From Bacteroidales bacterium (GTDB taxonomy: Bacteria; Bacteroidota; Bacteroidia; Bacteroidales; P3): a stretch of DNA of 64,000 nt. The DNA lies in the NCBI GenBank assembly GCA_017550405.1, contig JAFZPH010000019.1:35075-99074 (forward strand), in the 5' to 3' direction. Below the pieces are notes generated by a model. It worked only from the letters and a program-made list of their open reading frames with translations. It did not search any database and was not told the origin of the DNA. Positions 14,081 to 40,670 of this stretch are shown here, one piece after another. Within the stretch, counting starts at the first letter, position 1. Each line of letters starts with the position of its first letter. The position numbers were made by a program, and so were the translations under genes.

Positions 14081-14945
14081 ATAGCATATCACGTTGTTGT
14101 ACAGATATATTCTCCGTAGGAGATCTCGAATAGGTATATTCCAATGACCGATTTGGGTTTATTTGACAAAGACTAAAGTGTGCCGGAGGCACACCATCTC
14201 AATAACCCCACACTAAACACCGAAGGTGAGCAGTGTGGGGTAACGGTGACCCATCCCAATGCGTGTCGAAGACACGCCACCTCGTATCGATTAACAAGGT
14301 GGCGTACCACCGACAAGCAGAATATGCGTGTTAAAGTGTAAATCGATTTACGAATTAACACATTCACGAAATAATTGTTATATATAGGTGAGTATGCAAC
14401 GCGACGACCCCCCCGCATTATCACTCCCTTACGTCCTTCAAACCGGCATCCTTATTCTATCGTTCCTCCCTCGTTTCCTGTAATGATGAAAGATAACGAG
14501 CCTGTAACGATACTATCAGGATGCTAGATTGAACGGCCCCAGTGAGTCCCAGCGCCAACTCCAGGCTCGATGCCACATCGATAGAAACAATCGAGCAACA
14601 GATAATCAACCGAGAACAGAAAGATAAGCTGCTCCGACAGATAGAAGCCATCGAGAAGAAATGCCGGTTGGAGAAACAGACGCACAAGAAATATGAATTG
14701 CACCAGGAGGTTGTAAGGTTGAAATAAATATTAAGCATGTTTAAATATGCTTAATGTATATTTTCATAATAACATATTCATAATAAATCAGTTACATATA
14801 TATTCTAATTTTAAAAATGTGGTTTAGAACGGTGATTATCACGAATGGATATAAAAAAATAGGTTCAATTTACCCATTGGATAAATATTAAGCACATAAA
14901 AATGTGTTTGATATTTAAAAAAGATGCATATTAGATTATTTTTCG

Positions 14946-14953
14946 TATATTTG
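14946..14953 (+). promoter_or_regulatory. -7 box for the COG1373-type ATPase gene
   Basis: TATATTTG lies 19 nt upstream of the ATG at 14972. Confidence 0.5.
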
Positions 14954-14971
14954 TGGCCTAAAATATACAAT

Positions 14972-16432
14972 ATGTTAAGTAGTGAATTAATTGAGAAACA
15001 GATTATAGGGCGGCTCCGCGTTGACAATCCATGGTGGACAGAAAATGAGGTTCCAAGGTATTATTCCGATATGCATCCTCGTTTATATCTCGACATCTTT
15101 TATCCTCTTGTAGTTGATACCGAGATACGGCGAGCAATTATCTTGATGGGCCCGCGGCGCGTTGGCAAGACAGTCATGTTGTACCATACCATTCAAAAAC
15201 TAATTGCCGACGGTGTATCCCCACGGAACATCATCTATATATCTGTAGAGACACCCATCTACAACAAGATATTGCTGGAACACTTGTTCAACCTCGCCAA
15301 GCAGGCTTTGGGGAAAGCAGATAGCAGAGAACAATTTTTTGTGTTTTTCGACGAGATACAATATTTGAAAGACTGGGAGATAAACCTGAAATCCTTGGTG
15401 GACACTTACCGTAACATAAAATTCATAGCTTCTGGCTCTGCTGCTGCAGAACTAAAGAAGAGAAGCAATGAAAGCGGTGCAGGCCGCTTCACCGATTTCA
15501 ACCTTCCGCCACTCACGTTCTATGAATACATACACCTGAAAGATTACGGCCAACTGATGCATCCAGTCATGATGGAATGGTATTCTGGACATGTCCCTTG
15601 CAGCACAACTATTGACATCGCAAAGCTCAATAAGCTTTTTATCGACTATATCAACTATGGCGGTTACCCCGAGGTGGTGTTCTCCGAACGCATACAAGAA
15701 AACCCGGGACAATTCATCAGGCACGATATTATCGACAAGGTTCTTCTACGAGATTTGCCGAGTCTGTATGGAATCACCGATGTGCAGGAGTTGAACTCCT
15801 TGTTCACCATGATTGCTTATCACTCTGGCTCCCAGTTCTCATTTGAAGGATTGTCTCGCGATTCTGGCGTGAAGAAAGAAACGCTTCGCAAATATATTCA
15901 ATATCTGGAAGCAGCATTTTTGGTAAAAAAGATTCGCAGGGCTGACGATACGGCCAAGGCGTACAAACGGGAGATGCTGTTCAAGCTATACCTGACCAAC
16001 CCCTCGTTGCGCTGTGCTCTCTTCCAACCCATCGACGAGAACGACGATGCCTTGGGGAATATGGTTGAAACAGCTGTCTACGCCCAATGGATTCCACGAG
16101 ACGCTAATATCGCTTATGCCAACTGGAACGAAGGAAACAAAAAACAAGGCGAGGTGGACATTGTCGGCATCAACGAAGCAAGACAGAAACCTGACTGGGC
16201 TGTCGAGGTGAAGTGGACCGACAAGCCTTTTGCAAATCCCTCATCGGAATTGAAATCGTTGGAAACATTCATGAAAACCAACGGCCTCACCCATGCACTC
16301 GTCACCACCATATCAGAGACAGGCAAAAAAGATATGCCGTACGGCTGCCTACAGTTTATGCCCGTGGCCTGCTACGCCTATACGGTTGGCGAAAACACAT
16401 TGAAAGCAACAAAGATGACTTATGGATTGTAA
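14972..16432 (+). CDS. AAA+ ATPase with a DUF4143-type C-terminal domain (COG1373 family)
   Basis: Walker A GPRRVGKT and Walker B FFVFFDEIQYL. The C-terminal GEVDIVG...AVEVKW resembles a PD-(D/E)xK signature. Confidence 0.75.
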   Translation: MLSSELIEKQIIGRLRVDNPWWTENEVPRYYSDMHPRLYLDIFYPLVVDTEIRRAIILMGPRRVGKTVMLYHTIQKLIADGVSPRNIIYISVETPIYNKILLEHLFNLAKQALGKADSREQFFVFFDEIQYLKDWEINLKSLVDTYRNIKFIASGSAAAELKKRSNESGAGRFTDFNLPPLTFYEYIHLKDYGQLMHPVMMEWYSGHVPCSTTIDIAKLNKLFIDYINYGGYPEVVFSERIQENPGQFIRHDIIDKVLLRDLPSLYGITDVQELNSLFTMIAYHSGSQFSFEGLSRDSGVKKETLRKYIQYLEAAFLVKKIRRADDTAKAYKREMLFKLYLTNPSLRCALFQPIDENDDALGNMVETAVYAQWIPRDANIAYANWNEGNKKQGEVDIVGINEARQKPDWAVEVKWTDKPFANPSSELKSLETFMKTNGLTHALVTTISETGKKDMPYGCLQFMPVACYAYTVGENTLKATKMTYGL

Positions 16433-16659: not shown

Positions 16660-16821
16660 CAACGTCAAACCCCGTGGCCACCACGGGTCAGGCAAGCAAC
16701 AAAAAAGTGTAAAACAACAAACAAATTAACAACATAGAGAAAAGGAACTAACGTAAACAACGACATATTGACATAAAGCATTTTTTGCTTTTCAAGTGGA
16801 TGGAAATCTGGACAATTTCCT

Positions 16822-16887
16822 CTGTATTACACGAGAAAGCAGAAATGCTCACGGTATTATCCGTGGGCTTTCTCGTTTGTAATACAG
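16822..16887 (+). other. Long hairpin in the putative 5' leader of the helicase operon
   Basis: CTGTATTACACGAGAAAGC pairs with GCTTTCTCGTTTGTAATACAG (19 bp with a 2-nt bulge). An inner CACGG/CCGTG stem sits in the loop. Confidence 0.6.
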
Positions 16888-16979
16888 GCAGTCCAGAGCC
16901 TCCATCCAGACAGAAGTCCGCGGATTTTTTCATTGGTGGTGTTTTGAAAGGCAAAAAGCGAAAGAACCTTTCAGACATC

Positions 16980-19900
16980 ATGAGCACCAAATTCTTCAAC
17001 AATATAGAGACGACGCTGATGGACAAGTTCCACGGCATCGCCACAGCAATGGCCAACTTCGACATCTTTCATGCCGTAGTTGGCTATTTCCGTTCTTCGG
17101 GCTATTTCAAACTGCGCAAGGAACTGGAGAACGTGAAAGAGATACGCATCCTTGTAGGTATTGATATTGACAATCTTTTCCGTCAGTCGCAGGCGGCGGG
17201 CAAGCTGTTCTTCGGTGACCGCGATGCCACAATAGAGCAGTATGCTGAGGCTTTTCTGCGCGACGTGAAAGAATCCGATTACGACACCGAGGTTGACCGC
17301 GGTATACGGCAATTCTGCAAAGACATCGAGAGCGGCAGACTTGCGTTGCGTGCTCACCCTTCGCGCGACCTGCACGCCAAGTTCTACCTCTGTCTGCCCC
17401 AAGGGCATAATCCCAACAGCGACGGTTGGGTGATTATGGGCAGCAGCAACCTCAGCGCCCAGGGACTCGGAGCTACCGAGCCACCCAGATATGAGCTCAA
17501 TGTGGCAATGAAGGACTACGATGATGTGAGCTATTGCGAGGGCGAATTTCAACGACTGTGGAACGAAGGTCTGCCTGTCACCTTCGACGATGTGAGTCGG
17601 ATTATCAATAAGACCCACCTTGCTCCGGACGAGCAGCAGCCTACCCCCTACGAGCTTTATATGCGGATGATGATTGACCATTTTGGCACTCAGGTGGAGG
17701 ATGATTTTGTTCCCCTGCTGCCCGACGGCTACGACAATCTCACCTATCAGCGTGATGCTGTAGTGCAGGGCTACGACATCATGATGCGTCATGGCGGATG
17801 CTTTATCGCCGACGTGGTCGGTTTGGGCAAGACGGTTGTCGCCGCCATGATAGCGCAGCGTTTCATTGCCGCCAACGGCGACAGCACCCGCATACTGGTT
17901 ATCTTCCCGCCCGCAGTGCGCAGCAACTGGGTGGAGACCTTCAAGGATTTCAATATCCGCAACAAGTACAGCCACTTCGTCAGTAATGGCAGTTTGGACA
18001 AGGTGATTGCGGGAGCGGACAACTTAAGCCAACCGGGCTACTACGACCTGATTATTGTCGACGAGGCGCATAACTTCCGTCACGACAGTACCGGCAACTA
18101 CGACCTCTTGCAGCGTATCTGCAAGGCACCTCGACTCAACGGCGGCAACGTGTCGGGCGATAAGCGGGTGCTGTTGCTTTCGGCCACACCTTTGAACAAC
18201 ACTCCCGAAGATATAAAGAACCAGTTGTTGCTTTTTCAGGACACCGCCCGCTGCACGTTGGACGGAATAGGCAACATAGCCGACACCTTTGCCCCTTGGG
18301 TAAAGGAGCACAAGACCCTGATGTCGCAGCGGAGGGTGCTAAGTACCGAGATGTTGACCAAGCGCATCGATGCCATCAATCAGGAGATGCGGCATGTGGT
18401 GTTGGAGAAGGTGATGGTGCGCCGAACACGCAGCAACATACAGCATGAACCGCGGTACAGCGGTGAAATCCATTTCCCCGAATTGCTCGACCCCACCGTA
18501 CGCACCTATGAGATGACACCCCATGTCTACGAACTCTTCTACGAGACTTACCGCGCATTGGTTGCTGGAAAGAATAGCGATGCCGACAAGGAAGGCTCTT
18601 CGGGAGATAGTGCAACAGGACTGACTTATGCCCGCTACCGTGCCGTGGAGTACTGCCCTAAATACATCAAAGCCAACGGTGGCAAGGCCAAACAGGTGGC
18701 CGACCAGCTGGCAGCCATCTATCAGACCCACATGGTCAAGCGGTTGGAGAGTAGCTTCTATGCTTTCAAACGTTCATTGCACACCCTGCTGCAAGCCACC
18801 CTTGGCATGATAAAGATGTTTGAAGAAGACAAGGTGATTATCGCACCCGAGTTGAATGTGAAGAAACTACAGTCGGACGGCATGGAATTGGATGCCATCA
18901 TCGAGTTGGCACTGAACAAGGGCTACGACCAGGACGAGATACTATATAGGGCAGCGGATTTCAATCCCGAATTCCTGCCCATGCTCCAAGATGATGCAGC
19001 CTTGCTTGGTGCACTCTGCAAGCAATGGGATGCAGTGGATGAAGACTCGAAATTAGACCGTTTTATCGAGATGCTACAGGGTGAGTTGTTCGAAACCGAC
19101 ACCAATCCGACAGGCAAGCTGGTGGTCTTCTCCGAGAGTGTAGACACGGTGAATTACCTCGAGGAAGAATTGAAGAAACGGTTGCACCGTGATGATATAC
19201 TGGCTGTTTTCTCCAAGAATAGAAACAGGTTGCGCGAGACCGTCAGGGCCAATTTCGATGCCAACTACAAGGGAGAGGCCGTTGATGACTACAATATCAT
19301 CATCACCAGCGACGTGTTGGCGGAGGGCGTAAACCTGCACCGGGCAAATGTGGTAGTGAACTACGACAGCCCGTGGAACGCCACACGACTGATGCAGCGC
19401 ATTGGTCGTGTGAACCGTATCGGGTCGAAAGCACCGGTGATATACAATTATATGTTCTACCCTTCCGACCCGGGCGACAAGATTATCAGCCTGAAGAAGA
19501 ATTCGCTTATCAAGCTGCAGAGTTTCCATTCGGCATTGGGCGAAGACACCCGCATCTATTCCCACGAAGAGATGGTGCATGAGTTTCACCTCTTCAATTC
19601 AGATATGCAGGACGACACCGACCGCAGTCTGGAACTGTTGCGCGAAGTGAGGAGGCTGCACGACAGCAACCCTGCCCTATACCGACGCATCAAGCAGCTG
19701 CCCTGCAAGAGCCGTTGCGCCAGGGATACGAAAAATAACACATTACCACAATCACAAATTCACACAATCACCTATCTCTCTTCCCCGAAGAAGAAAGCCT
19801 TCTATCTTGTGGGGGAACATATCCGCGAGCTCTCTTTCTTAGAGGCAGCCACCATCATGAAGGCAGAGCTGGATGAGCACGCGGTGCCATTTGGTGACAA

Positions 19901-20321
19901 TATGGCACTGCACTACGAACAGGTGCGGAGTGCGATGGCGCAATACACAATCGACCAGCAACGGCAACATCAAGAGGACAAACCCAAGATTGGCAGCAAG
20001 GATAACGACGCTAAAAAGGCGGCTGCTTTCCTGCGCGATGTGCGTCCCTCCCTGCCTGACGACGAGGCCCGCAAAACGGTGGATGTGCTGAAAGCACTGG
20101 TGGAACGGGGTAAGTACAACCAGTTGGCCGACAACCTCAACCGATTGTCGAGGAAGCACAAGAAGAGTCCGCTGCCTATCATCGAGATAGTGGAACAATT
20201 GGAAGAACTGAAAGCCCGATATTCCCATCCCGATAAAGAGACACCGACCCAGACAAGTGCCGGTATCACTGCCGACATAATCCTCAGCGAGACCTTCTTT
20301 TGTTATCCGTTGATAAGTTGA
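16980..20321 (+). CDS. PLD-family nuclease domain fused to an SNF2/DEAD-like helicase (restriction or defence subunit)
   Basis: N-terminal HxK...GSxN motif (DLHAKFYL...IMGSSNLSAQG). Helicase motifs VVGLGKT, IIVDEAHNFR, LLLSATPLNN and QRIGRVNRIG. I chose the ATG at 16980 (MSTKFFNNIE...) because the upstream part of the ORF does not look protein-like. Confidence 0.8.
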   Translation: MSTKFFNNIETTLMDKFHGIATAMANFDIFHAVVGYFRSSGYFKLRKELENVKEIRILVGIDIDNLFRQSQAAGKLFFGDRDATIEQYAEAFLRDVKESDYDTEVDRGIRQFCKDIESGRLALRAHPSRDLHAKFYLCLPQGHNPNSDGWVIMGSSNLSAQGLGATEPPRYELNVAMKDYDDVSYCEGEFQRLWNEGLPVTFDDVSRIINKTHLAPDEQQPTPYELYMRMMIDHFGTQVEDDFVPLLPDGYDNLTYQRDAVVQGYDIMMRHGGCFIADVVGLGKTVVAAMIAQRFIAANGDSTRILVIFPPAVRSNWVETFKDFNIRNKYSHFVSNGSLDKVIAGADNLSQPGYYDLIIVDEAHNFRHDSTGNYDLLQRICKAPRLNGGNVSGDKRVLLLSATPLNNTPEDIKNQLLLFQDTARCTLDGIGNIADTFAPWVKEHKTLMSQRRVLSTEMLTKRIDAINQEMRHVVLEKVMVRRTRSNIQHEPRYSGEIHFPELLDPTVRTYEMTPHVYELFYETYRALVAGKNSDADKEGSSGDSATGLTYARYRAVEYCPKYIKANGGKAKQVADQLAAIYQTHMVKRLESSFYAFKRSLHTLLQATLGMIKMFEEDKVIIAPELNVKKLQSDGMELDAIIELALNKGYDQDEILYRAADFNPEFLPMLQDDAALLGALCKQWDAVDEDSKLDRFIEMLQGELFETDTNPTGKLVVFSESVDTVNYLEEELKKRLHRDDILAVFSKNRNRLRETVRANFDANYKGEAVDDYNIIITSDVLAEGVNLHRANVVVNYDSPWNATRLMQRIGRVNRIGSKAPVIYNYMFYPSDPGDKIISLKKNSLIKLQSFHSALGEDTRIYSHEEMVHEFHLFNSDMQDDTDRSLELLREVRRLHDSNPALYRRIKQLPCKSRCARDTKNNTLPQSQIHTITYLSSPKKKAFYLVGEHIRELSFLEAATIMKAELDEHAVPFGDNMALHYEQVRSAMAQYTIDQQRQHQEDKPKIGSKDNDAKKAAAFLRDVRPSLPDDEARKTVDVLKALVERGKYNQLADNLNRLSRKHKKSPLPIIEIVEQLEELKARYSHPDKETPTQTSAGITADIILSETFFCYPLIS

Positions 20322-20397
20322 TAAGTTTATACGGCTCGCATCATATCAACAAATCAAATCAACATAAACATTAACATATAATTTAATCCAACCACTT

Positions 20398-23300
20398 ATG
20401 AACACCGAGACACTGCGACAGATATTCCAGTCGCCATTCAACTACCCTTTATTCAGTCGTGAGATAGTACATGGCATTTTCGGCTGCAACGATGTGCAGT
20501 CCCAACCCGAACTGATAGACACATCTTCTTTGGGTGACAGCAGCTATTATGTTGGACAGATGGAAGACTGCGAGAGTCGTCTGCTGGGTTTCTTCTATAC
20601 CCGTGTGGCGGAGGGCAGCGACGTGCGCCGCAAGCGCGTAGGATTGAGAAAACTGATACAGCCGTATCTGCGGTATGAGGTGGATGCTGCCATTGCGGTA
20701 TTCGACGATGGGCAGCATTGGCGGCTGTCGTATATCTGCGACCATAAAGAGGGAACAACGTCGGCCAAACGATTTTCTTACGTGTTGGGTGACAAGCAGG
20801 GACAGTACAAGACCCCTTTGGAGCGGTTGGACAGAGTGGCAGCAAAGGCAGGTCATTTTAAGATGGATGACCTTCGGGATGCCTTCTCGGTAGATGCACT
20901 CAGCAAGGAGTTCTTCGATGAGTATCACCGTCACTATGACCGCATCTGTGATTATATTATCCACTCACACATTAACACATTAACGCAATTACACATTCAT
21001 GATTATGTGAAGAAAATGATGGGGCGTATTGTGTTTTTGCATTTCCTGCAGAAGAAAGGCTGGCTGAATGACGACCAAGAGTTTCTAAGCAAACTATTCT
21101 TCTTGAGTCCATACAAGCAGGATTTCCTTGAACAAGAATTAGAGCCACTCTTCTTTGGTATATTCAACACCGAGCCAGACAAACGCGAACAACTGTTTCA
21201 CCAAGAGCTCTGGGATCTGCGGTGGTTAGCGGAATGGGAAAAACTGCCCTATTTGAATGGCGGTTTGTTTGAGCGCGATGAGGTGGACAAAATGAAGATT
21301 AAACTGCCTGCATCATTATTTGAGAATCTGTTTAAGTTTATGGCCTCGTACAACTTCACCATTGATGAGAACGACCCCGACGATGCAGATATTGGAATTG
21401 ACCCCGAGATGCTGGGCAAGATCTTTGAGAGCCTGTTGGAGGACAACAAAGCCAAAGGTGCATTCTATACCCCCAAGGAGATAGTGCGCTACATGTGCAA
21501 AGAGAGCCTGATAGCCTATCTGAATAGTAAAGTGAATAGTGATGAGGTGAATAGTGAATCGAAAGAAAATCAAATCACTAATCACGATTCACTCGTCACT
21601 GCCGTAAGGCAATTTGTTGAGCAGCATGAATTCCCCGAGGAGTTGGAGCCTTATCGCGAAGTGTTAGATACCGCCTTGCGGAATGTGAAGATATGCGACC
21701 CCGCCATCGGCAGCGGTGCCTTCCCGATGGGCTTGCTGAATGAGCTGTGGCGTTGCCGTGAAGCATTGGGAGAAAGGGCTACCAGCCCGTCACAGATGGG
21801 ATCACAGGCCACAGGCCTGTCACAGGCTGGAAGCCTGTGCTCCAAAGAAGGACAAGCTGGAAACTTGTACCCCTATTCCCGCGCAGCCCTCAAACGAGAG
21901 ATCATCGAGAATAACATCTATGGAGTAGACATTGAGAAAGGTGCCATCGACATCGCCCGCCTGCGCTTCTGGCTCTCCATTGTTGTCGATGCTGAGAAAC
22001 CGGAGCCCTTGCCCAACTTCGACTACAAGTTTATGCAGGGCAACAGCCTTATTGAGAGCTTTGGGGGATACGACCTCAGCCATATCATGGACAAGAAAGT
22101 TGAAAGGAATGGAAAAACATATTATCAACGTCGAATAGGAGGAAAAGAGACCGTCCAAGTGTCTATGGATTTCTTCTCCAATGATACAAGACAGAACCTC
22201 AGAATCTGGCTGAAGAGATATTTCACGCTTACCAATCACCATGAGAAAACAGAGTACCGAAAGCGCATCAACGAAAGTGTGAAGAGTTACATAAAACAAC
22301 AAGGCATCGGACCTTCTGCCGAGACCAAATTAGACACCCTCGACCCCTCAGCAAACCAAGACTTCTTCCTCTGGCACACATGGTTCAAAGACATCTTTGA
22401 TAACGGTGGATTTGATATTGTGATTGGAAATCCTCCTTACATCAACGTTGAAAATCTTGATGAAAAGACAAAAGTTTATCTTTTTACGCATTATTCCACA
22501 TGTCAAGGACGCACAGATATTTATATTGGATTTATTGAGAAGGCAATAGCATTAATGAACAATAATGGTGTGACCTCTTTCATTATCCCTTATTCATACA
22601 CTAATCAAAATTATGGAGAACTCTCTCGTAAAATGTTAGCCGAGAAATATTCCATTGATGAGATTGTTGATACCTCCAACTACTATGTTTTTGACAATGC
22701 AGTGGTAAAAAACATTATCATCCGTTTTGGGAAAAGAAAGGGCGATTTCACATTGATTAGAATTGCTGATAATAAAGAATGTTTTGAGCAAGCAAATTTC
22801 GGGAATAGAAGACTGCCTACAAAAACTTTCCTTCAATTAAAGAATTGCCGAATAGAGACAAAACCTTTCGAAAATATATTGGGAATAAAAGAAAATATTG
22901 AAAAGGCATCAATAAGACTAGGAAAAATCTATTTGGTCGCATATGGAGTACGTGTCAATAACAAATATGATAAAAACAAGCCCAAAAACTATTATATTCA
23001 CGACACGCCTCAGGCGCAGTATAAGAAATTTACTGAGGGGAAATGCATAGATAGATATACATTTACACAATATGGATGGCTTAATTATTGTCCGAATGAA
23101 CATTATAATTCCATGTTTCCAGAATTGTTCGAAAATGAGAAACTGATGTTTATCAATGTTGTATCAAAAGGGCTAAGATTTGCATATGATAACGATGGCT
23201 ATTATAATAGTCATACGGTAGTGAACTGCGTGAATATATCAAAGCTTACAAAAGTAACCCATCCAACAGCAAAGAAAGCAATTAAAGAAGGAAATGTTAT

Positions 23301-23604
23301 TCTAGCAAAAAATTACTCCACAAAATTTGTGCTTGGACTAATTAACTCTAAACTTATTAACTGGTATTTCATGCAATTCCAGAGTGAGGGTTTGCATTGT
23401 TATCCAGATGATGCAAAACAATTCCCTATCATAAAAGTCACTCCAGAGCAACAGCAACCTATTATAAATCTAGTTGATCAAATTCTCGAAAAGAAGCGAG
23501 ACTTTCCTAATGCCAATACATCTGCATTGGAACAAGAAATCGACAAATTAGTTTACCAACTCTACAACCTCACTCCCGAAGAAATCGCTGTGATAGAGCA
23601 ATAA
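20398..23604 (+). CDS. Eco57I-like gamma-class N6-adenine DNA methyltransferase with a TaqI-like C-terminal target-recognition domain
   Basis: Motif I DPAIGSGAFPMG, motif IV GNPPY (22429-22440) and TRD-like GLINSKLINWYF. 1068 aa. Confidence 0.85.
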   Translation: MNTETLRQIFQSPFNYPLFSREIVHGIFGCNDVQSQPELIDTSSLGDSSYYVGQMEDCESRLLGFFYTRVAEGSDVRRKRVGLRKLIQPYLRYEVDAAIAVFDDGQHWRLSYICDHKEGTTSAKRFSYVLGDKQGQYKTPLERLDRVAAKAGHFKMDDLRDAFSVDALSKEFFDEYHRHYDRICDYIIHSHINTLTQLHIHDYVKKMMGRIVFLHFLQKKGWLNDDQEFLSKLFFLSPYKQDFLEQELEPLFFGIFNTEPDKREQLFHQELWDLRWLAEWEKLPYLNGGLFERDEVDKMKIKLPASLFENLFKFMASYNFTIDENDPDDADIGIDPEMLGKIFESLLEDNKAKGAFYTPKEIVRYMCKESLIAYLNSKVNSDEVNSESKENQITNHDSLVTAVRQFVEQHEFPEELEPYREVLDTALRNVKICDPAIGSGAFPMGLLNELWRCREALGERATSPSQMGSQATGLSQAGSLCSKEGQAGNLYPYSRAALKREIIENNIYGVDIEKGAIDIARLRFWLSIVVDAEKPEPLPNFDYKFMQGNSLIESFGGYDLSHIMDKKVERNGKTYYQRRIGGKETVQVSMDFFSNDTRQNLRIWLKRYFTLTNHHEKTEYRKRINESVKSYIKQQGIGPSAETKLDTLDPSANQDFFLWHTWFKDIFDNGGFDIVIGNPPYINVENLDEKTKVYLFTHYSTCQGRTDIYIGFIEKAIALMNNNGVTSFIIPYSYTNQNYGELSRKMLAEKYSIDEIVDTSNYYVFDNAVVKNIIIRFGKRKGDFTLIRIADNKECFEQANFGNRRLPTKTFLQLKNCRIETKPFENILGIKENIEKASIRLGKIYLVAYGVRVNNKYDKNKPKNYYIHDTPQAQYKKFTEGKCIDRYTFTQYGWLNYCPNEHYNSMFPELFENEKLMFINVVSKGLRFAYDNDGYYNSHTVVNCVNISKLTKVTHPTAKKAIKEGNVILAKNYSTKFVLGLINSKLINWYFMQFQSEGLHCYPDDAKQFPIIKVTPEQQQPIINLVDQILEKKRDFPNANTSALEQEIDKLVYQLYNLTPEEIAVIEQ

Positions 23605-23631
23605 AAGAAGGAGTATTACGTTATAAAAAAT

Positions 23632-24576
23632 ATGAAGCATAAGCCTAAAGATAATATATTAGAATCTTTGGATAGGAATTGCCTAACAACACCGCGCTCA
23701 GGTTCTTTTTTGCAAGATCTAGTAAATCTTTGTGAAAAAATGAATGATGAGATGTTGTTTGAACTAATCCCCATCAGACTAGTGGCATATTTAGAAGATA
23801 TGTTGCGGTTGAAATATGAACTTGTACTAAGACAGCCTGGAAAGCTAAAGAGTGTGTATGAACAAAACAAAAAGAAACTTGCCATTGATTCTGCCGAACT
23901 AATTGACGGTACCCTTCCTTTAAGTTTACAAATCGCCTATTCTTTTGGTTGCAATAATTTGAACGAGATCCTTGATAATATTAAAACTCTAACAAACATT
24001 GATTTAAATAAATTATGTGCTGATAAAATGGGAGACGATACCTGGATAAAAACACGAATATCTATTGATAGTATGTTCAATTTTAGACATAGGTTGTGCC
24101 ATGAATCAGGACATGGATTATGCATTTCTAAAGATTGTGCTCGGACCTGGATACAAGATGTGGGATTGTTGCTAAATTTAATAGACATTGCAATAGTCAA
24201 TACTGTTTATAAAGACTATCATTTCTTCAAAGAAAGTGATAAATCAAACAAGGACATTGACAGTGTGTTAGATGAAAACATTCAAAATGCTCAAAAGTTA
24301 TTTTATGATTCCGAAAAAAATCTTGATGATATTCTGCAACTATCTATAACTGATAATCAATATCCTAAAAGAATACCTAATTTGGATTATATATCAAAAT
24401 GGAAAGAATATAGAGATAAGAGAGTGGAGAGTGAAAACTTTTTCCCTATTGGCTCTAAACAAAATGTATTGTATACTTTGAAAGAAAAAACAACCTACAA
24501 TAACACTCTATATAATGAATTAAAAATTAGGTATAGGGATTTTATTAACTATGCCACAATTAATAAAATCATGTAA
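23632..24576 (+). CDS. Hypothetical protein with an RxxxxH (HEPN-like) motif
   Basis: 314 aa, AT-rich, 27 nt after the methyltransferase stop. It carries the motif FNFRHRLCHESGHG. The C-terminal WKEYRDKRVE is reminiscent of DUF1311, but that is weak. Confidence 0.6.
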   Translation: MKHKPKDNILESLDRNCLTTPRSGSFLQDLVNLCEKMNDEMLFELIPIRLVAYLEDMLRLKYELVLRQPGKLKSVYEQNKKKLAIDSAELIDGTLPLSLQIAYSFGCNNLNEILDNIKTLTNIDLNKLCADKMGDDTWIKTRISIDSMFNFRHRLCHESGHGLCISKDCARTWIQDVGLLLNLIDIAIVNTVYKDYHFFKESDKSNKDIDSVLDENIQNAQKLFYDSEKNLDDILQLSITDNQYPKRIPNLDYISKWKEYRDKRVESENFFPIGSKQNVLYTLKEKTTYNNTLYNELKIRYRDFINYATINKIM

Positions 24577-24586
24577 TAAATAATTT

Positions 24587-25300
24587 ATGGACTTGAAGAA
24601 AAACTTATTTAAACTCAAAAAAAATTGGTGGAAAATACTATTATTTATTTTTTTGATAAGTATTATCCCCGTTTCCCTAAATATTGTTTTAGGCTCAAAT
24701 AATCCATTTCATCGATTTTCCATTATTGGAGACCCTAAAGATTGGCTGACATTTTGGGGAGTATATTTGGGATCAATTGGGACCTTAATTATGGCTGTAA
24801 TTGCATTCAGTTCTCTTAAACAAAACGACCTTCTTGCCAAACAAAATGAAGATCAACTAAAAGAAATAAAACGACAATGGGAAGAGCAGAATAGAGCAAG
24901 GTTATCATGCTCCTTGGCGATAGGAAAAGACTGTATATACATTGAAATTAAAAACATTGCGTCTGTGCCAGCCCACAATGTTAATGTCTCGCTTGAAGAT
25001 TATACGGAAGAGAAAGGAATTTATGAATTTGATACCCTATGTGACCATCTAGCAAAAATACGTTTTGAAATATCACCATTTGAGATAAAACAGATTCCTG
25101 TATGGGGTGTGTCGCCATATGTTGATGGTAAATATGGTGGATATTTGGCTGTAATACTATCGTATAATGGTGTCTCGGAGACTTTTAATTTATATCTTGA
25201 GGAAATTAACGTAACAGCTTGGAAATATTATACACGAGATGTGTGTGACAGCCTAAAGAATATTAATTCGACAATTGATGAAATAAAAAGAAAAATCTAA
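24587..25300 (+). CDS. Hypothetical 2-TM membrane protein
   Basis: 237 aa, 10 nt after the previous stop. Hydrophobic helices WWKILLFIFLISIIPVSLNIVLG and FWGVYLGSIGTLIMAVIAF are followed by a soluble domain. Confidence 0.6.
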   Translation: MDLKKNLFKLKKNWWKILLFIFLISIIPVSLNIVLGSNNPFHRFSIIGDPKDWLTFWGVYLGSIGTLIMAVIAFSSLKQNDLLAKQNEDQLKEIKRQWEEQNRARLSCSLAIGKDCIYIEIKNIASVPAHNVNVSLEDYTEEKGIYEFDTLCDHLAKIRFEISPFEIKQIPVWGVSPYVDGKYGGYLAVILSYNGVSETFNLYLEEINVTAWKYYTRDVCDSLKNINSTIDEIKRKI

Positions 25301-25371
25301 CTGACATGACCCGACTTCCGACCATAACGATGTTTAAAAGTAAAAATATCCGAGGCCACTGTGGCAGACTT

Positions 25372-25450
25372 GGAAATTGAAAAGTGAAAGTCGAAAAGTG
25401 AAAAAGGGTGTTCGCTGAGGGACCTATACAAATTGAAAATTGAAAAGAAG
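25372..25450. repeat. Cassette-boundary repeat array R1 (1 unit plus partial units)
   Basis: (GAAAAGT)n-like words flank the core GTGTTCGCTGAGGGAC (25408-25423). Confidence 0.8.
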
Positions 25451-25538
25451 GTTTCTGAGAATCCATTGGAGGATATTCTCACCTGAAACCTTTCCTTGCA
25501 CATATTGATGCACAAGTAGATAACTATAGACATTAGAT

Positions 25539-26600
25539 TTACTTCAACGTCATTTGCAAACCCTTGTACAGATAGAAGAACGCCTTGGGGTTAGTCTTCT
25601 TTAGTTTGTTAAGCTTGGTGTATTCATACTCCGCGATTGTCCAATGAGCTATTTCTGCGTTGTGGGAAGGTGTATATTTCTCAATCTTTGGAGACTGTGT
25701 CATCAACGAGGCGGCCAGATAGTAGGTCTTGGCGGCAAAAAGGATGGCTTTTTCTATATGGAATGATTCTGAAAAGATGTGGTTGGCCACCTGTTTTATA
25801 CCTAACAAGAGAGTATCGAAGTCTGTTCCTTTATGGCTGCATCGGAAACAGATGGAGAGAGCATTGTCCATCGTGTCGCTAAGCACATCGTCAACAGTGC
25901 AAGACATATTATGGTACAACAATTCTTTTTCAGCTATTCGACGATAGGTTGAGTTGATGGCGAGCAAATCATCGGCCTTGTCGAAGAGGCGTCCGATGTC
26001 ATACAACTGCTTGATTATCTCCATCCCGCAGCTGTTGTAGCCTTTCTTGTAGGGAATGCCTATGGTTCGTGGTGCAAAGGCAGTCATCTTGTCGGCAAGG
26101 AGATTGTTGTAGTCGGGAACCTTTACCATAACATCAGGCGTTTCGGTGTCGATAAAGTCATTGGCGACAGGTTGGTCAAGAAGTACAGTATAAGGATTCT
26201 CCTCGAACAGCACGTCGAGTAGTATGGAGGCCTCCTTGTCTTCTACTACTGAGTGGTAGTAGAATTTGTAATGCTTCGCAGGGATGTCGCCCGTTGAGGC
26301 ACGTTGTTGGCACTCAAAACGGGTGAATCCATTGCTGTCACAGATTGAATGGAGAATAGCGTCGATGTCGTTGTACCGTGGAGACACTATGATGTCAATG
26401 TCTATAGAAAGGCGATGCGGCTTTTGAAACATCAGCATTAGGGCAGTTCCTCCTTTGAAGACAAACGGAAGCGAGGAATTTGCAAGACCTTCGAGCAAAG
26501 CTAAAGCCCGGATGGCTTTCTCGACCAGAATGCGGTCGGCTTTGTTTTCTTTGGATACCTTGCATATCCAATCGTGGGTGAAAGAACTTGGTTTTATCAT
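25539..26600 (-). CDS. abiEii: Nucleotidyltransferase AbiEii/AbiGii-family toxin
   Basis: FKGGTALMLMF...RLSIDIDIIV nucleotidyltransferase motifs. 353 aa, immediately downstream of an AbiEi-like gene. Confidence 0.8.
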   Translation of the reverse strand: MIKPSSFTHDWICKVSKENKADRILVEKAIRALALLEGLANSSLPFVFKGGTALMLMFQKPHRLSIDIDIIVSPRYNDIDAILHSICDSNGFTRFECQQRASTGDIPAKHYKFYYHSVVEDKEASILLDVLFEENPYTVLLDQPVANDFIDTETPDVMVKVPDYNNLLADKMTAFAPRTIGIPYKKGYNSCGMEIIKQLYDIGRLFDKADDLLAINSTYRRIAEKELLYHNMSCTVDDVLSDTMDNALSICFRCSHKGTDFDTLLLGIKQVANHIFSESFHIEKAILFAAKTYYLAASLMTQSPKIEKYTPSHNAEIAHWTIAEYEYTKLNKLKKTNPKAFFYLYKGLQMTLK

Positions 26601-26601
26601 C

Positions 26602-27315
26602 TCAATAGTCTATTTCATCAAGTATTTCTTCTATCACGGCACGACGGCCACGACGACCGGCATAGCGGAGCATGCGGCTGATATTGACGGCATAGGACGA
26701 GCAGGCGTTCTCAAAGATGCGGAGCATCTCTATATTTTGGAACGGAAACATTTTGTCCAAGGCGAGATCCACCAGTATCTTCTCTATCGAAGCCATCGGT
26801 ATGTCTTCCACTGTGATTACAGGGGCGGCTGTAATCAGGTTGCGCACAACAATGCAACCGTCATAATATGCGAGTTCCTCGTTGAGGTTGTTGCTGAGGA
26901 CGGTTTTAGGGTATTTGTCGCGAATAGCATAATAAACTGCCTCTCGTGCATAGCGCTCGACATCGACAAAAAACAACTCGGTATTGAGGAGATGATGGAC
27001 AAATGCATTGACCGCAGAGAAATTCCATTGGCAGTAATCTGCGAACGGAAACTGCTTGCGCATAATACGGGCTATATCCATTGTTTTACGGAAGATGTCG
27101 GGAAAGAAAATCTTTTCTTCCCCAAAACGATAACGACCGTGGCCGATTCTATGCAGGATTCCTTTGTCTATTAATGAATGAATACGCCATTTGACGGTTG
27201 AAAACGGGATGTCTGGAGAAAAACTGCAGTAGAAATCATCAATATCTCTTATTGTGATTTCTGTTTTGTTTCCCAGTGCATTACGCATCTCCTCTATATG
27301 TAAATTATCATACAT
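26602..27315 (-). CDS. abiEi: AbiEi-family antitoxin / transcriptional regulator (wHTH)
   Basis: WRIHSLIDKGILHRIGHGRYRF winged-helix signature. I chose the ATG at 27315 because the longer ORF runs into the repeat array. Confidence 0.7.
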   Translation of the reverse strand: MYDNLHIEEMRNALGNKTEITIRDIDDFYCSFSPDIPFSTVKWRIHSLIDKGILHRIGHGRYRFGEEKIFFPDIFRKTMDIARIMRKQFPFADYCQWNFSAVNAFVHHLLNTELFFVDVERYAREAVYYAIRDKYPKTVLSNNLNEELAYYDGCIVVRNLITAAPVITVEDIPMASIEKILVDLALDKMFPFQNIEMLRIFENACSSYAVNISRMLRYAGRRGRRAVIEEILDEIDY

Positions 27316-27335
27316 TATCGTTATATTTGACGATG

Positions 27336-27343
27336 CAAAGATA
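27336..27343 (-). promoter_or_regulatory. -7 box for the abiEi-abiEii operon
   Basis: The minus strand reads TATCTTTG, 21 nt upstream of the ATG at 27315. Confidence 0.55.
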
Positions 27344-27400
27344 CGCAAATTTTTGTCAATAGAAAGAAAAAAATGACAAAAGTTTGAAAAATGTATGTGG

Positions 27401-27625
27401 GGTCTTAACGAGGGTTTATGGACCAATACAAAGTGAAAAGTGAAAAATGAAAAGAGTGTTCGCCAAGGGACCATTACAAATTGAAAAGTGAAAATTGAAA
27501 AGTGAAAAGGGTGTTCGCCGAGGGAGCAATACAAATTGAGAAGTGAAAAATGGGGTTACCGAGAGACCAATACAAAGAGAAAAGTGAAAATTGAAAACTG
27601 AAAAGAGTGTTCGCCGAGAGGACGA
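27401..27625. repeat. Cassette-boundary repeat array R2 (4 units, period ~42-55 bp)
   Basis: Cores sit at 27456, 27511, 27552 and 27607 (GTGTTCGCC[A/G]AGGGA...) and alternate with GAAAAGTGAAAATTGAAAAGTGAAAAG words. Confidence 0.85.
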
Positions 27626-27657
27626 AGAACCATCGAAGCCCCCACGACATCGGAAAA

Positions 27658-28089
27658 TCACCGTTCTAAGCGGCATGATTCTCCTGTTCGACAAAACTTT
27701 ATGGTTATATCCCTGCTCTTAAAACTCTTTTCAATGGCTTGACGCTTGGTGTCGTTCTTGGGACAAGTGTTTGAGAATACAGCAAAAGCCATTCTTTTTG
27801 CTCCACTGAGACGAGGTGGCAATCTGTCTATGGTGTCTTTCAGCTGCTCAACTGCCTTGATCGAATCGCCACCTTTCAATTCGACGAAATATTGGTCAGC
27901 ATATTCTTCGCTTTCTAACAGGTTATCGCATTTGGAACCATCAGCTGCTGTAAAGACACAACCATCCACTTGAATGGCACGATAGGTGTTTCGTGCAGGA
28001 TTCTCAAACGTTATCCTTGATTTATTTTCGGAGAAGACAATGAGGGAATCAGACCTCGTTTCGACACAATGTGCTGGAATAATATTCAT
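27658..28089 (-). CDS. Small PD-(D/E)xK-like putative nuclease, partner of the upstream ATPase
   Basis: 143 aa. ...CVETRSD...KCDNLLESEEYADQYFVELKGG gives E...D-x14-E-x-K. Its start overlaps the ATPase stop by 4 nt (ATGA). Confidence 0.6.
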   Translation of the reverse strand: MNIIPAHCVETRSDSLIVFSENKSRITFENPARNTYRAIQVDGCVFTAADGSKCDNLLESEEYADQYFVELKGGDSIKAVEQLKDTIDRLPPRLSGAKRMAFAVFSNTCPKNDTKRQAIEKSFKSRDITIKFCRTGESCRLER

Positions 28090-29348
28090 GACTCAAGCAG
28101 TTTGGAGAAGTCGGAGGATATAGTATCGGATGCCGCATCTAAATCGGTTTGGGCGATAAGGCGTAGGTCGTAGTCTTTTATGTCTTTGACTGTCCCATTG
28201 TCAACAGCATAGACATTGATGTCTTCGAATTGGATTGCAGCAGATTTACCAACAACAGTTTCCACCACATTGGAATCTTTGTTATCAGCCGCTTGGATAA
28301 GGTTGTTGAATGAGGATAGGATATAAGGACTATGTGTGGCAATGCATAGGCTGTTATCTTGAGTGGTGTTTATTTGCTTGGCCATCCATTTTACCAATTC
28401 ATACTGGGTTGATGGGAAAAGGTTTTCCTCCGGCTCTTCAAGATAAATTGATGCATACTGGGTTAGCGAGAACTTATCTACTATTTCACTAAACAAAACC
28501 TCATCGTGGTGGGATGAAAAAAACTTGACAAAAGGTTCTGAAACAGTTTTTGCAATGTCATCGTCCTTTTCATCAATATTAGGGCCATTCGAGTGAGTGA
28601 ATTTCTCCTTATATAACGTGTCTTGCAGATTGTTTAGTTCGCGTTTTTGTGCCACACTGAGCTGGCGAGGACGGTGGAGTTCATAAAAGGTCAGATAATT
28701 TATCAAGCCACATAGAGGAACGACTGATTGAAGTCCACTAGATGCATTTAGAAATGCGATCTCTTTACCTTTATCAATTAATATTCTTTCTCTGTACTGC
28801 TCCTTTTCGTAATAATACGATAGTCCGAGATTCAGTATGTCGAGCCTGCTTTGTGGTGGGAAGGTACTACGAGCATTCTCCCAATCAGACATGTACCCCT
28901 GAATGTTATTGTCGATACTGAAAGAAATGTCAAACCAATTAGGAATGACAGCCACAATATTACGTTCGGCGGGGATATATGCTATCTGGGGACGACTGTA
29001 TTGCCAGCGGTCACGAGGTTTCCATTTAAAACTGAACTGAATCTTTTCTGGGGATCCGGAAATGGAAAAGGCCATATATGAGGATTCATATTTAATCAGA
29101 AATCCTTTTTTAATGAAGCCATTCAATCGATGATAATCAACAAGTTGTTTCCAAAACTCAAACTCATTTAAATAGTTATCTGGCTCCTGACTCAACTCAA
29201 TACGCTTCTCAACCCATTTGCAATAGGATGCAATTTTAAGGATACAACTTTTTCCAGAACTCTGTGGGCCAATAAAAAGGTTGTATTTGGCAAGATTAAC
29301 AGTTGCACTTTTTAAAGGCCCTATATTTTTGATTATTAACTTGTTCAT
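28086..29348 (-). CDS. ABC/SMC-like AAA ATPase (AAA_15/AAA_21-like)
   Basis: Walker A GPQSSGKS, signature-like ASSGLQS, Walker B IYLEEPEENLFP and H-loop IATHSPYIL. Confidence 0.75.
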   Translation of the reverse strand: MNKLIIKNIGPLKSATVNLAKYNLFIGPQSSGKSCILKIASYCKWVEKRIELSQEPDNYLNEFEFWKQLVDYHRLNGFIKKGFLIKYESSYMAFSISGSPEKIQFSFKWKPRDRWQYSRPQIAYIPAERNIVAVIPNWFDISFSIDNNIQGYMSDWENARSTFPPQSRLDILNLGLSYYYEKEQYRERILIDKGKEIAFLNASSGLQSVVPLCGLINYLTFYELHRPRQLSVAQKRELNNLQDTLYKEKFTHSNGPNIDEKDDDIAKTVSEPFVKFFSSHHDEVLFSEIVDKFSLTQYASIYLEEPEENLFPSTQYELVKWMAKQINTTQDNSLCIATHSPYILSSFNNLIQAADNKDSNVVETVVGKSAAIQFEDINVYAVDNGTVKDIKDYDLRLIAQTDLDAASDTISSDFSKLLES

Positions 29349-29374
29349 GTATAATCAGCATGTTTTTTACTTTG

Positions 29375-29382
29375 CAAAAATA
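29375..29382 (-). promoter_or_regulatory. -7 box for the ATPase-nuclease operon
   Basis: The minus strand reads TATTTTTG, 27 nt upstream of the ATG at 29348. Confidence 0.5.
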
Positions 29383-29450
29383 CAAAAAAATATTGATATT
29401 ATTACTTTCATGATGGAAAAACATCTCAAAGTAGATGAACGAAAGGACAA

Positions 29451-29616
29451 AGTTGAAAAATGAAAAGTGTGTTCGCAGAGGAACAATAAAAATTGAAAAT
29501 TGAAAAGAGAGTCGCCGAGGAAACAAATAAAATTGAAAAGTGAAAATTGAAAATTGAAGAGTGTGTCCGCTGAGGGACAATTATAATTGAAAAGTGAAAA
29601 ATTGAAAAATGAAAAG
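29451..29616. repeat. Cassette-boundary repeat array R3 (3 units)
   Basis: Cores at 29469, 29509 and 29563 are separated by TTGAAAAGTGAAAATTGAAAA words. Orientation is the same as R1 and R2. Confidence 0.85.
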
Positions 29617-29804
29617 GCTCCTTAAATTCCAGTTACAAGTAAGAAGCACAATAATAGTGCTATTATTGCGTTATTTTGATTACAATTAAACATTTATCAT
29701 GAAGTATCATACATGTACTATTTTATTGACGCTTGCTTGTGCAGTTTGTTCAAATGGGTCATGTGGTTGCCACATGACCTAATATTAGCCCCCAACCTAC
29801 CTAT

Positions 29805-30842
29805 ATGAACCCTGTAGCCATCCGTCTGCTAAACCAGCAGCTCTGCTCGCCCCAGTTTTCAACCCCCGAAGAGGTGGTGGCGCACCTCGGTGCCATGCAG
29901 GCACAAGAGTATAGACTGATGCGCTGGGCTGTCGCTATGCGGACAAAGAAACCCTCTTCCGAGGCATTCCAACAGGCTTTCGACAGTGGAAGAATCGTTC
30001 GGCTACACCTGATGCGAGGCACATGGCAACTGGTCGCGGGAGATGATTATTGGTGGTTACTGGACTTACTGGCCGAAAAGAGCCGCCGTGTAATCCGAGG
30101 ATGGATGACATCGAATCACATCTTCATACCCGACGACGAGATTGTTCGCATCAGAGAGATTAATGCCCGATGTGCCGAGGACTGTGGCAGCGCCACCAAG
30201 GAGGACTTTGTCAACGCCCTTGCCGCTCAAGGCATCAAAATGGACGACCACCGACTGTCGTACCACATCCGTATGGCCGAACTCTCAGGTACTTTGTGCA
30301 GTGGAAAACTCCTCCCCATGAAAGCGACTTACAGCCTTGCTGAATCACGCATTCCTCATCGAGAGCACATAGACCGTGAGGAGGCTTTGGCCCGACTGAC
30401 ACGCAAGTATTTCTTAAGCCGATGCCCGGCAACCTTGGAGGACTTTGTATGGTGGTCGGGATTGAGCGTCAGAGACTGCCGAAAAGGGGTCTCCGCCCTC
30501 GGCGACGAGCTATACTCTGTCAAATGGCACAACCGGGAGTTCTTCATCCACCAAGATGCCCGACATCATGGAGTGCGTCATGGAAACCTCTTGCTTCTCC
30601 CTCCGTATGACGAATACCTTATAGGGTATAAGAGTCGCGACATTGTGGTGCCAGAAACCCACCGCCATCATGCCCACAACTCGTCGGGCATCTTCTACCC
30701 TATCATCCTTCGGGACGGGATTGCCTGTGGGAATTGGAAGCCTTTTGAAAAGCAGATGCTCTGTCAGCCGTTTGACCCAGCCGACAACATTGAGGGTCTT
30801 GAAATGGCGTGGAAAAAGTATCAGCGTTATCTTGGTCATTAA
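29805..30842 (+). CDS. Winged-helix DNA glycosylase, YcaQ/AlkZ family (DUF1006)
   Basis: MNPVAIRLLNQQL...PEEVVAHLGAMQAQEYRLMRWAV at the N-terminus. 345 aa, with GC-rich backbone composition. Confidence 0.7.
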   Translation: MNPVAIRLLNQQLCSPQFSTPEEVVAHLGAMQAQEYRLMRWAVAMRTKKPSSEAFQQAFDSGRIVRLHLMRGTWQLVAGDDYWWLLDLLAEKSRRVIRGWMTSNHIFIPDDEIVRIREINARCAEDCGSATKEDFVNALAAQGIKMDDHRLSYHIRMAELSGTLCSGKLLPMKATYSLAESRIPHREHIDREEALARLTRKYFLSRCPATLEDFVWWSGLSVRDCRKGVSALGDELYSVKWHNREFFIHQDARHHGVRHGNLLLLPPYDEYLIGYKSRDIVVPETHRHHAHNSSGIFYPIILRDGIACGNWKPFEKQMLCQPFDPADNIEGLEMAWKKYQRYLGH

Positions 30843-40283: not shown

Positions 40284-40317
40284 ACCATAATATTTGTTTG
40301 ATTCGTATTTCTAGTAA

Positions 40318-40670
40318 TTTACATCTGTAACTACATTTAATTCATTGTGCAAAGATACGACTTTTTTTCGGTTTACATAAATAATTGTTTATATTATTAC
40401 AGATGTAAACCTGCGAATTGATAAATCAAAACATTAAATGATTAAATATATTCTATTGTTATTAAGTCTATTAAATTCTATTTATTTCGAAGTTGATTAT
40501 ACCTTCATTTAATCTCATTTAATACTTTATATGATTATAATTATATATTGATATATAGTTTACTAATAATACAATATATATCAATTATATCACTATTTAT
40601 GTGGTTTACATGTTTTATGTGGTTTACATCTGTAATAATACCCATTCTGTTACAATATTTACGAATGTAA
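40318..40670. promoter_or_regulatory. Cluster of TTACA-N2-TGTAA palindromes (candidate operators)
   Basis: TTACATCTGTAA at 40319-40330 and 40624-40635, its complement TTACAGATGTAA at 40397-40408, and the variant TTACGAATGTAA at 40659-40670. Confidence 0.45.
40350..40357 (-). promoter_or_regulatory. -7 box for the XRE regulator
   Basis: The minus strand reads TATCTTTG, about 67 nt upstream of the ATG at 40283. Confidence 0.5.

Follow-up and report, generated by a model that had tools for sequence, protein, structure and literature searches.

Among the described systems that pair an ATP-binding cassette (ABC) ATPase with a separate effector, HEC-02, an Hma-embedded candidate made up of an ABC ATPase and a NERD protein, has been shown experimentally to defend (bioRxiv 10.1101/2024.01.29.577857), and HEC-01, a related ABC-ATPase candidate, protects against phages; a cold-seep preprint is also cited for HEC-01 and HEC-02. 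The same study lists PDC-M29 as one of 145 untested "guilt-by-embedding" candidates, this one discovered through its embedding in BREX, DISARM or type I restriction-modification (RM) systems (Payne et al., bioRxiv 10.1101/2024.01.29.577857). In its supplement, the cassette CAS_00123, written FAM_00005>>FAM_02872, has 110 occurrences and the remark "Assign as candidate PDC-M29", and the ATPase family FAM_00005 is also used in HEC-01, PDC-M07 and PDC-M31 (bioRxiv 10.1101/2024.01.29.577857). Here we describe two overlapping genes at positions 27,658 to 29,348 of a 64,000-nucleotide stretch of DNA (hereafter, the window) from a Bacteroidales bacterium (contig JAFZPH010000019.1, assembly GCA_017550405.1), where the list of open reading frames (ORFs) contains, on the minus strand, one of 420 amino acids (aa) and one of 143 aa that overlap by 4 nt. 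On sequence evidence, this pair is a catalogued and uncharacterised candidate of a computationally defined kind, PDC-M29, and we show that its two genes form a genuine, translationally coupled and co-diverging unit.

The initial annotation had taken the pair for a candidate undescribed defence system. The pair is not undescribed, because the PADLOC-DB v2.0.0 models PDC-M29A and PDC-M29B match both proteins, and this refutes the earlier view weakly, in that the name belongs to a candidate and not to a validated system. The ATPase matches the PDC-M29A model PDLC04562 with E=1.1e-54 over residues 1-419 (profile positions 1-405 of 410), the next-best PADLOC model being PDC-M56A with a partial match at 6.8e-14. 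The small protein matches the PDC-M29B model PDLC04563 with E=8.8e-6 over residues 27-126 (profile positions 43-151 of 164, or 66% of the model). These assignments were made by profile E-value and coverage. The modest match of the small protein is a consequence of its divergence from the RefSeq seed sequences. In a set of 135 diverse members of the small-protein family, assembled to measure conservation and with a median identity of 32% to the window protein, 127 match a PDC-M29B model (101 and 26, over PDLC04563 and PDLC04564), and in the diverged pairs L068 and L015 the best-scoring model for the ATPase is still PDC-M29A. The locus thus displays the features by which PDC-M29 is recognised, namely a full-length match to A, a match to B, and A followed by B in adjacent positions on one strand; it shows no structural difference from PDC-M29 and is a member of it.

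In the loci sampled, the two genes are almost always neighbours. Downstream of each of four distant homologues of the ATPase (60, 51, 45 and 43% identity), which lie in four unrelated neighbourhoods, an ORF of 138-149 aa overlaps the ATPase gene; none of these four ORFs has a Pfam match, and all are homologues of the 143-aa protein (34-60% identity). A reciprocal search from the small protein returned 59 metagenomic loci, 56 of them with upstream sequence, and in 49 of these the small gene is immediately preceded by the ATPase gene. The seven exceptions are all decayed: L044 and L048 have a disrupted small-protein N-terminus, the truncation of L054, L055, L058 and L059 lies at about residue 56, and L066 is a fragment. 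The ATGA overlap of 4 nt between the stop codon of the first gene and the start codon of the second, pointed out in the initial annotation, has been kept in 44 of 46 complete pairs, even at protein identities as low as about 37-45%. Pairwise identities of A and of B rise and fall together with a slope of 1.0 (r=0.976 over 39 unique pairs), so that the expectation of conserved neighbours is borne out as well. Relative to the window, the median ratio of nonsynonymous to synonymous substitution rates (dN/dS) comes to 0.087 in A and 0.113 in B (20 loci); both ORFs are therefore real genes under purifying selection and not chance ORFs. In one further locus, the metagenomic contig L074 (2741-4001), two ORFs of 191 and 241 aa stand in place of the ATPase gene while the small gene is intact, owing either to a frameshift that made the ATPase gene a pseudogene or to faulty assembly. 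Fusions of A and B were considered and rejected; the longer ATPase homologues are mis-calls of the N-terminus, and no fusion was seen among them.

The 420-aa protein is a bona fide ABC/SMC-class (structural maintenance of chromosomes) ATPase, distant from every solved one, because its motifs are invariant and its fold is matched at only 10-15% identity. The complete motif set that had been read from the sequence is present, with GPQSSGKS at residue 27, ASSGLQS at 202, IYLEEPEENLFP at 301 and IATHSP at 336, corresponding to the Walker A motif (G27PQSSGKS), the signature (S203SGLQS), Walker B (L303EEPE) and the H-loop (T338HSP), and all four are invariant in 29 homologues of 43-92% identity. Pfam places the protein with AAA_15 (5e-12) and AAA_21 (1.5e-7), the type first suggested for the insert between its Walker motifs. 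In the AlphaFold2 (AF2) model (mean predicted local confidence, pLDDT, 82; predicted template modelling score, pTM, 0.83), the loops at 132-145 and 253-272 are disordered and a helical insertion separates the signature motif from Walker B. Foldseek searches of this model against the PDB gave 113 matches at E<=1e-3. The nearest structures are those of Septu PtuA (8eea, 8sux and 8ee4) and of the PtuA-like ATPases of retrons I-A, Ec78 and Eco7, followed by retron Eco8, the SMC and Rad50 heads and GajA; the top matches have E-values of 7e-9 to 1e-6 and template modelling (TM) scores of about 0.4-0.45. Comparison of the ATPase sequence with PDB sequences yielded Walker A noise only, and a scan of the pair with NCBIfam found nothing above cut-off and no housekeeping model. 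An identity with MADS was rejected, as the NCBIfam MADS3 match is partial and reaches 29 bits against a cut-off of 420 bits.

Judged by sequence matches, membership in Septu, PARIS, Gabija or HEC-02 fails both on the effector and on a full-length match of the ATPase. HEC-02 encodes an ABC ATPase with a separate partner of the PD-(D/E)xK superfamily, as the window pair probably does, but the HEC-02A models reach the window ATPase only at its N-terminus, over residues 2-108 and 2-128 (4e-9 and 1.8e-8), and the small protein, a minimal 143-aa protein with a cysteine-containing motif, matches neither HEC-02B nor the NERD Pfam family; a single one of the 135 PDC-M29B relatives matches HEC-02B (1.1e-4), which does no more than suggest a remote kinship. 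Septu, including the retron-associated PtuAB, is a two-gene system of ATPase and nuclease, as the window pair probably is, and PtuA is the closest structural match (E of about 7e-9, TM 0.42-0.45). However, the identity is 10-15%, the PtuA profile models match only some 50-80 residues towards the C-terminus of the ATPase, from about 295 to 374 (1e-7 to 1e-6), and the partner matches neither PtuB nor HNH. PARIS also combines an ABC ATPase with a separate nuclease, which AriA sequesters until it is triggered, and the AriA model gives a match of 2e-12; this match covers only residues 297-344, no AriA structure is among the top 50 Foldseek matches, and the partner has no match to AriB, DUF4435 or Toprim. 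The statement in the initial annotation that the effector carries neither HNH nor TOPRIM motifs is thereby upheld. The ABC ATPases of Gabija and OLD fall in the same broad clade, with partial GajA matches at about 1e-6, but GajA and OLD fuse a TOPRIM nuclease to the ATPase and Gabija adds the helicase GajB, neither of which is seen in the window pair. In Lamassu with a Cap4-type LmuA, an SMC-like LmuB is combined with a PD-(D/E)xK effector, a class of ATPase-effector pairing that is probable for the window too. Lamassu differs in its long coiled coils, its third gene, LmuC, and its much larger effector; one weak LmuB match was found among the 135 relatives of B, and there was no meaningful match to LmuA or LmuB.

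The partner of the ATPase is one of a large family of proteins. When 1.84 billion representatives were searched with a profile, 2,411 clusters (defined at 50% identity) were recovered at E<=1e-3, of which 1,071 remain at E<=1e-10; nearly all of the top 150 matches are standalone proteins of about 135-150 aa, and a look-up of the clusters returned "hypothetical protein" names only. The signature D-x14-ELK that had drawn attention to the protein is present as D55-x14-E70-L-K72. Across the 135 diverse members N30, C54, E70 and Q82 are invariant, D42, D55, L71, K72 and G73 are 99% conserved, and C8, C44, E21, P110 and Q117 are 85-91% conserved. An aspartate, ExK and QxxxY are the motifs of RecB-family and HsdR nucleases, and the D-x14-ExK-x9-Q spacing of the small protein resembles these. 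In the AF2 model (pLDDT 90, pTM 0.87), strands are predicted at 36-40, 56-60, with D55 at its start, and 66-71, with E70 and K72 at its end, followed by a helix at 76-89 that holds Q82, a strand at 99-105 and a further helix. As far as the secondary structure of the model goes, this order would correspond to the beta-beta-alpha-beta part of the PD-(D/E)xK core.

Weaker signals point in the same direction. We used the enrichment pattern among the Foldseek matches of the small protein and relied on no single match. About 13 of the top 50 matches in the PDB and about 8 of the top 50 among viral structures have the restriction-endonuclease fold, with some 90 columns aligned, and include EcoT38I, HindIII, FokI, SdaI, Mus81, the nuclease domain of Avs4, T7 endonuclease I-like proteins and the N-terminal domain of RPB5. 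Nine Pfam families are matched below threshold by at least two small-protein members, and five of these (HSDR_N_2, four times; SduA_C, three times; SfsA, HSDR_N and NucS_C, twice each) are families that we take to belong to the PD-(D/E)xK clan; PDDEXK_9 and DUF2726 are matched once each. Single relatives among the 135 match HEC-02B (NERD-like), PDC-M56B and PDC-M47B. The only match of the small-protein alignments to a PDB sequence, calpain (E=0.42), was dismissed as noise. We therefore regard a PD-(D/E)xK-type nuclease as the probable, though not proven, identity of the small protein. The fold is only probable because no structure or profile match is significant; what stands of the nuclease-fold effector first proposed is the conserved D...ExK and an order of modelled elements that fits, and what does not stand is any significant match in Foldseek, Pfam or the PDB.

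The pair moves as a unit between unrelated contexts, which are often defence islands. The window is from a rumen lineage of Bacteroidales, and a search of genome contigs with the ATPase found only close relatives (79-89% identity), in metagenome-assembled genomes (MAGs) of the RUG and RGIG series from the rumen. Around the pair, we counted 207 different neighbour clusters, the commonest of which is found in only seven loci. The neighbour families include Type IIG RM enzymes, PDC-S01, AriA-like ATPases, KAP/Qat, AbiEii and Mrr, among housekeeping genes; particular loci have QatABCD (L009), Menshen NsnB/C (L015) or an SpbK-like TIR protein with an Aga-like restriction endonuclease (REase; L001). 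In a marine contig (L073), the two genes alone are the inserted unit, because only the pair lies between the pabB-like and pabC-like genes; the locus with the split ATPase, L074, shares this pabB/pabC-type insertion site. A tblastn search found no copy on plasmids, and an alignment scan of viral contigs gave 155 pattern matches and no relatives. In the phage collection, tblastn gave two weak matches, both on unannotated faecal-virome contigs. One of the relatives on such DNA is at MT838931.1:3213-3578, in a 4.7-kb "Bacteriophage sp." contig from human faeces (39% identity to the small protein, E=6e-14), and it is either genuinely phage-borne or bacterial DNA in the virome. The system is thus not evidently phage- or plasmid-borne.

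By analogy with Septu, PARIS, Gabija and HEC-02, we propose, with a probability of about 0.6, that PDC-M29 is a self-contained, horizontally mobile two-gene immune or abortive-infection module in which the ABC ATPase would be the sensor and a nuclease the effector. The ATPase would oligomerise head-to-head through ATP, as ABC ATPases do, and would bind the small nuclease in a fixed ratio, which the ATGA coupling may help to secure, keeping the nuclease inactive. A phage-derived cue would then switch the ATPase and release or activate the nuclease. If PARIS, Septu and Gabija are a guide, this cue might be an abnormal DNA structure, the depletion of nucleotides, or a protein made by the phage, for example an anti-restriction factor. 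The freed nuclease would cut nucleic acid, either DNA or tRNA, and halt phage replication, possibly at a cost to the cell.

Several points weigh against this proposal. Trigger, substrate and phenotype all rest on analogy, as does the interaction between A and B, and our search of the literature found no paper that names PDC-M29 in its text or tests it. The sample in which co-occurrence was measured is mostly from rumen Bacteroidales (39 unique pairs), as against a family of 2,411 clusters, and three loci (L011, L013 and L073) have housekeeping genes around them and no further defence gene in the flank. Regarding the effector, the best Foldseek E-values of the small protein are 0.11 in the PDB and 0.015 in BFVD, none of them significant, and the protein has neither a Pfam match nor a PDB profile match. 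Its model has beta strands where the PD-(D/E)xK core has its N-terminal helix, and the three conserved cysteines, C8, C44 and C54, are not accounted for and might bind a metal or support the structure. The lack of a significant match to any nuclease and the cysteines would both be accommodated if the small protein were a non-catalytic subunit, that is, an adaptor or a metal-binding or nucleic-acid-recognition protein in which the conserved D, E, K, Q and C residues serve binding or structure. The N-terminal half of the model, an all-beta extension unlike the canonical core, fits such a role too, and inactive PD-(D/E)xK-like domains exist, an example among the weak matches being the N-terminal domain of RPB5, which we presume to be an inactive fold of this type. 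However, near-total conservation of D...ExK...Q at about 30% identity is what catalysis predicts, and the weak matches are enriched in active nucleases, so that we consider a non-catalytic role improbable.

The neighbourhoods raise the question whether the pair acts on its own. It might be a backup layer tied to the neighbouring Type IIG or DISARM-like system (a DrmD-like PLD-SNF2 helicase with an Eco57I-family methyltransferase), the ATPase sensing that system, or its inhibition by phage anti-restriction proteins, and unleashing the nuclease once the system is disabled, much as PrrC acts with EcoprrI. Of 74 loci, 24 have an Eco57I-family Type IIG/PglX/DrmMI-like enzyme within the fetched flank, and with identities of 26-74% these do not represent one inherited neighbourhood; no other neighbour family recurs as often as the Type IIG-like enzymes, which form 6-7 distinct clusters, the DrmD-like helicase and methyltransferase flank the pair both in the window and in L009 (60% identity), and PDC-M29 was itself found by embedding in BREX, DISARM or type I RM systems. 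Yet 50 of the 74 loci have no such enzyme within reach, the pair stands alone in the housekeeping contexts of L011, L013 and L073, four other genes separate it from the methyltransferase in the window, and defence islands bring unrelated systems together anyway; the dependence on a neighbour is thus doubtful. Equally tentative is a bolder version, in which PDC-M29B would be a new branch of the restriction-endonuclease fold, minimal in size (about 140 aa), bearing cysteines and lacking any near structural neighbour, held by a PtuA-like ATPase and guarding the Type IIG/DISARM-like system. The module would then fire once phage anti-restriction proteins disable the neighbouring restriction system, and would not be a direct phage sensor. 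Tight translational coupling and strict pairing are also what toxin-antitoxin logic expects, and the pair could be an addiction module in which the ATPase neutralises a nuclease toxin, stabilising the island and not defending against phages; the patchy, mobile distribution, the adjoining AbiE toxin-antitoxin pair and the disruption or truncation of every small-gene copy that lacks the ATPase, as if the toxin cannot be kept alone, are in line with this. We think it rather unlikely, as the putative neutraliser lies upstream, is three times the size of the toxin and keeps a full set of ATPase motifs under strong selection, features that set it apart from classical antitoxins and recall the sensors of PARIS and Septu, and as plasmid copies are lacking in the tblastn search; the distinction from abortive-infection defence is, in any case, partly semantic. 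Finally, the ATPase fold is common to Rad50, SMC and RecF-type proteins and some loci are embedded among core genes, as would be expected of an SbcCD- or RecN-like ATPase with a nuclease partner in housekeeping repair or recombination. The low GC of the pair relative to its flanks, its patchy presence amid 207 neighbour clusters, its frequent decayed copies, its association with defence genes and the failure of any NCBIfam housekeeping model to match it make this very improbable.

The features of the locus and of its surroundings are collected in Table 1.

Table 1. Coordinates of the PDC-M29 cassette and of accompanying features in the window
Feature	Position	Strand	Basis and remarks
Putative Bacteroidetes-type -7 promoter box TATTTTTG (TAnnTTTG)	29375..29382	-	Pattern scan; 27 nt 5' of ATPase start codon; function inferred
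PDC-M29A, 420-aa ABC/SMC-class ATPase	28086..29348	-	PADLOC, Pfam, motifs, AF2, Foldseek, dN/dS
ATGA stop/start overlap of ATPase and small gene (translational coupling)	28086..28089	-	Coding strand reads TGAGTCATGAATATT
PDC-M29B, 143-aa standalone protein, probable minimal PD-(D/E)xK-like nuclease	27658..28089	-	PADLOC, conservation, AF2, dN/dS
Terminator-like hairpin with T-rich tail	27610..27626	-	Consensus scan; 6-bp stem, 3 GC pairs; weak, putative
Upstream direct-repeat array, about 3 units of 40-55 bp	29441..29616		Repeat scan
Downstream direct-repeat array, about 4 units of 41-55 bp	27420..27618		Between PDC-M29 cassette and AbiEi/AbiEii
Third, intergenic repeat array	25374..25446		
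AAA_14/DUF4143 protein, PDC-S01	14924..16432	+	PADLOC, E=2e-58
PLD-SNF2 (DrmD-like, "HKD+Snf2") helicase	16785..20321	+	
Eco57I-family methyltransferase	20398..23604	+	
314-aa protein	23632..24576	+	
237-aa protein	24587..25300	+	

Upstream of the ATPase gene, the pattern scan found no match to the full two-box promoter TTTG-N17-23-TAnnTTTG; the box TATTTTTG fits TAnnTTTG, which we take to be the Bacteroides -7 consensus. The putative hairpin lies about 30 nt past the stop codon of the small gene, within the first unit of the downstream repeat array. A scan of 25000-30000 with Rfam gave one spurious sub-threshold snoRNA match only, inside a coding region, and neither a tRNA nor an obvious integration site was found. 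The pair is AT-rich, with a GC content of 0.40 where the window as a whole has 0.476 and the flanks have 0.51-0.55, and it is flanked by repeat arrays and followed immediately by AbiEi/AbiEii, all as described in the initial annotation.

The repeat motif of the arrays has 16 matches in the window, compared with 0.03 expected, and 15 of the 16 are within the three arrays, which separate the defence cassettes (AbiE and PDC-M29) from one another. The repeat units of 41-55 bp consist of a 7-nt sub-period, GAAAAGT or GAAAATT, and a GC-rich GTGTTCGCCGAGGGACC segment; they have no inverted symmetry, and the GC-rich part is able to form the weak terminator-like hairpin listed in Table 1. No Rfam match was obtained for them. 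The arrays that flank PDC-M29 are restricted to its closest relatives, at about 85% identity or more, and since they are confined to this lineage we rejected them as a component of PDC-M29 and regard them as part of the island context. The same repeats are present in L001 (5112-5850 and 7744), L019, L020 and L054 (4321-4430). Sister MAGs have different cassettes between the arrays, for example the SpbK-like TIR protein with the Aga-like REase in L001, and in L054 and L055 a 5'-truncated PDC-M29B gene abuts an array. This suggests array-bounded exchange of cassettes, that is, a cassette-swapping hotspot in rumen Bacteroidales.

The low-GC island that holds the pair extends from about 14000 to 29700 and contains, in order, PDC-S01, the PLD-SNF2 DrmD-like helicase, the methyltransferase (of the Eco57I-family Type IIG/PglX/DrmMI-like kind), two genes without assignment, AbiE and PDC-M29, with an AlkZ-like glycosylase gene coming next. 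Relatives of the PDC-S01 protein are among the commonest neighbours of PDC-M29 elsewhere (five distinct clusters). The pairing of helicase and methyltransferase recurs next to PDC-M29 in L009 (6715-11266), where the ATPase is only 60% identical, and the two may constitute a DISARM-like or type ISP-like two-gene restriction system that is recurrently associated with PDC-M29. The adjacent genes between the Type IIG methyltransferase and AbiE, which encode a 314-aa and a 237-aa protein with N-terminal transmembrane segments, have a GC content of about 0.30-0.34; their products have no match above threshold in Pfam, PADLOC or NCBIfam, with weak matches to SLATT_1 (E=0.019) and TMEM164 (0.0019), and they are a possible further two-gene defence candidate with a membrane effector. 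Elsewhere in the window, the segments 40001-42000 and 50001-55000 are low in GC (0.29-0.39) and may be further horizontally acquired islands.

The architecture of PDC-M29 will not surprise specialists, and it opens no long-standing question. What the locus offers is a set of residues on which the proposed mechanism could be tried: K33 and E305 of the ATPase are the positions for mutation, and the catalytic candidates in B are D55, E70, K72 and Q82, to which D42, N30 and the cysteines C8, C44 and C54 can be added. The recurrent association with Type IIG or DrmMI-like methyltransferases suggests a guard hypothesis that is testable. The evidence points to the two genes alone as the mobile functional unit. 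For the rumen Bacteroidales, the arrays and the cassettes between them suggest a defence hotspot in which cassettes are swapped. If validated, PDC-M29 would add a branch to the immune systems made of an ABC ATPase and a separate effector, alongside Septu, PARIS, Gabija, Lamassu and HEC-01 to HEC-04, and its effector would be an unusually small one, from a large and unstudied family that stands apart from any structural relative detectable with Foldseek.

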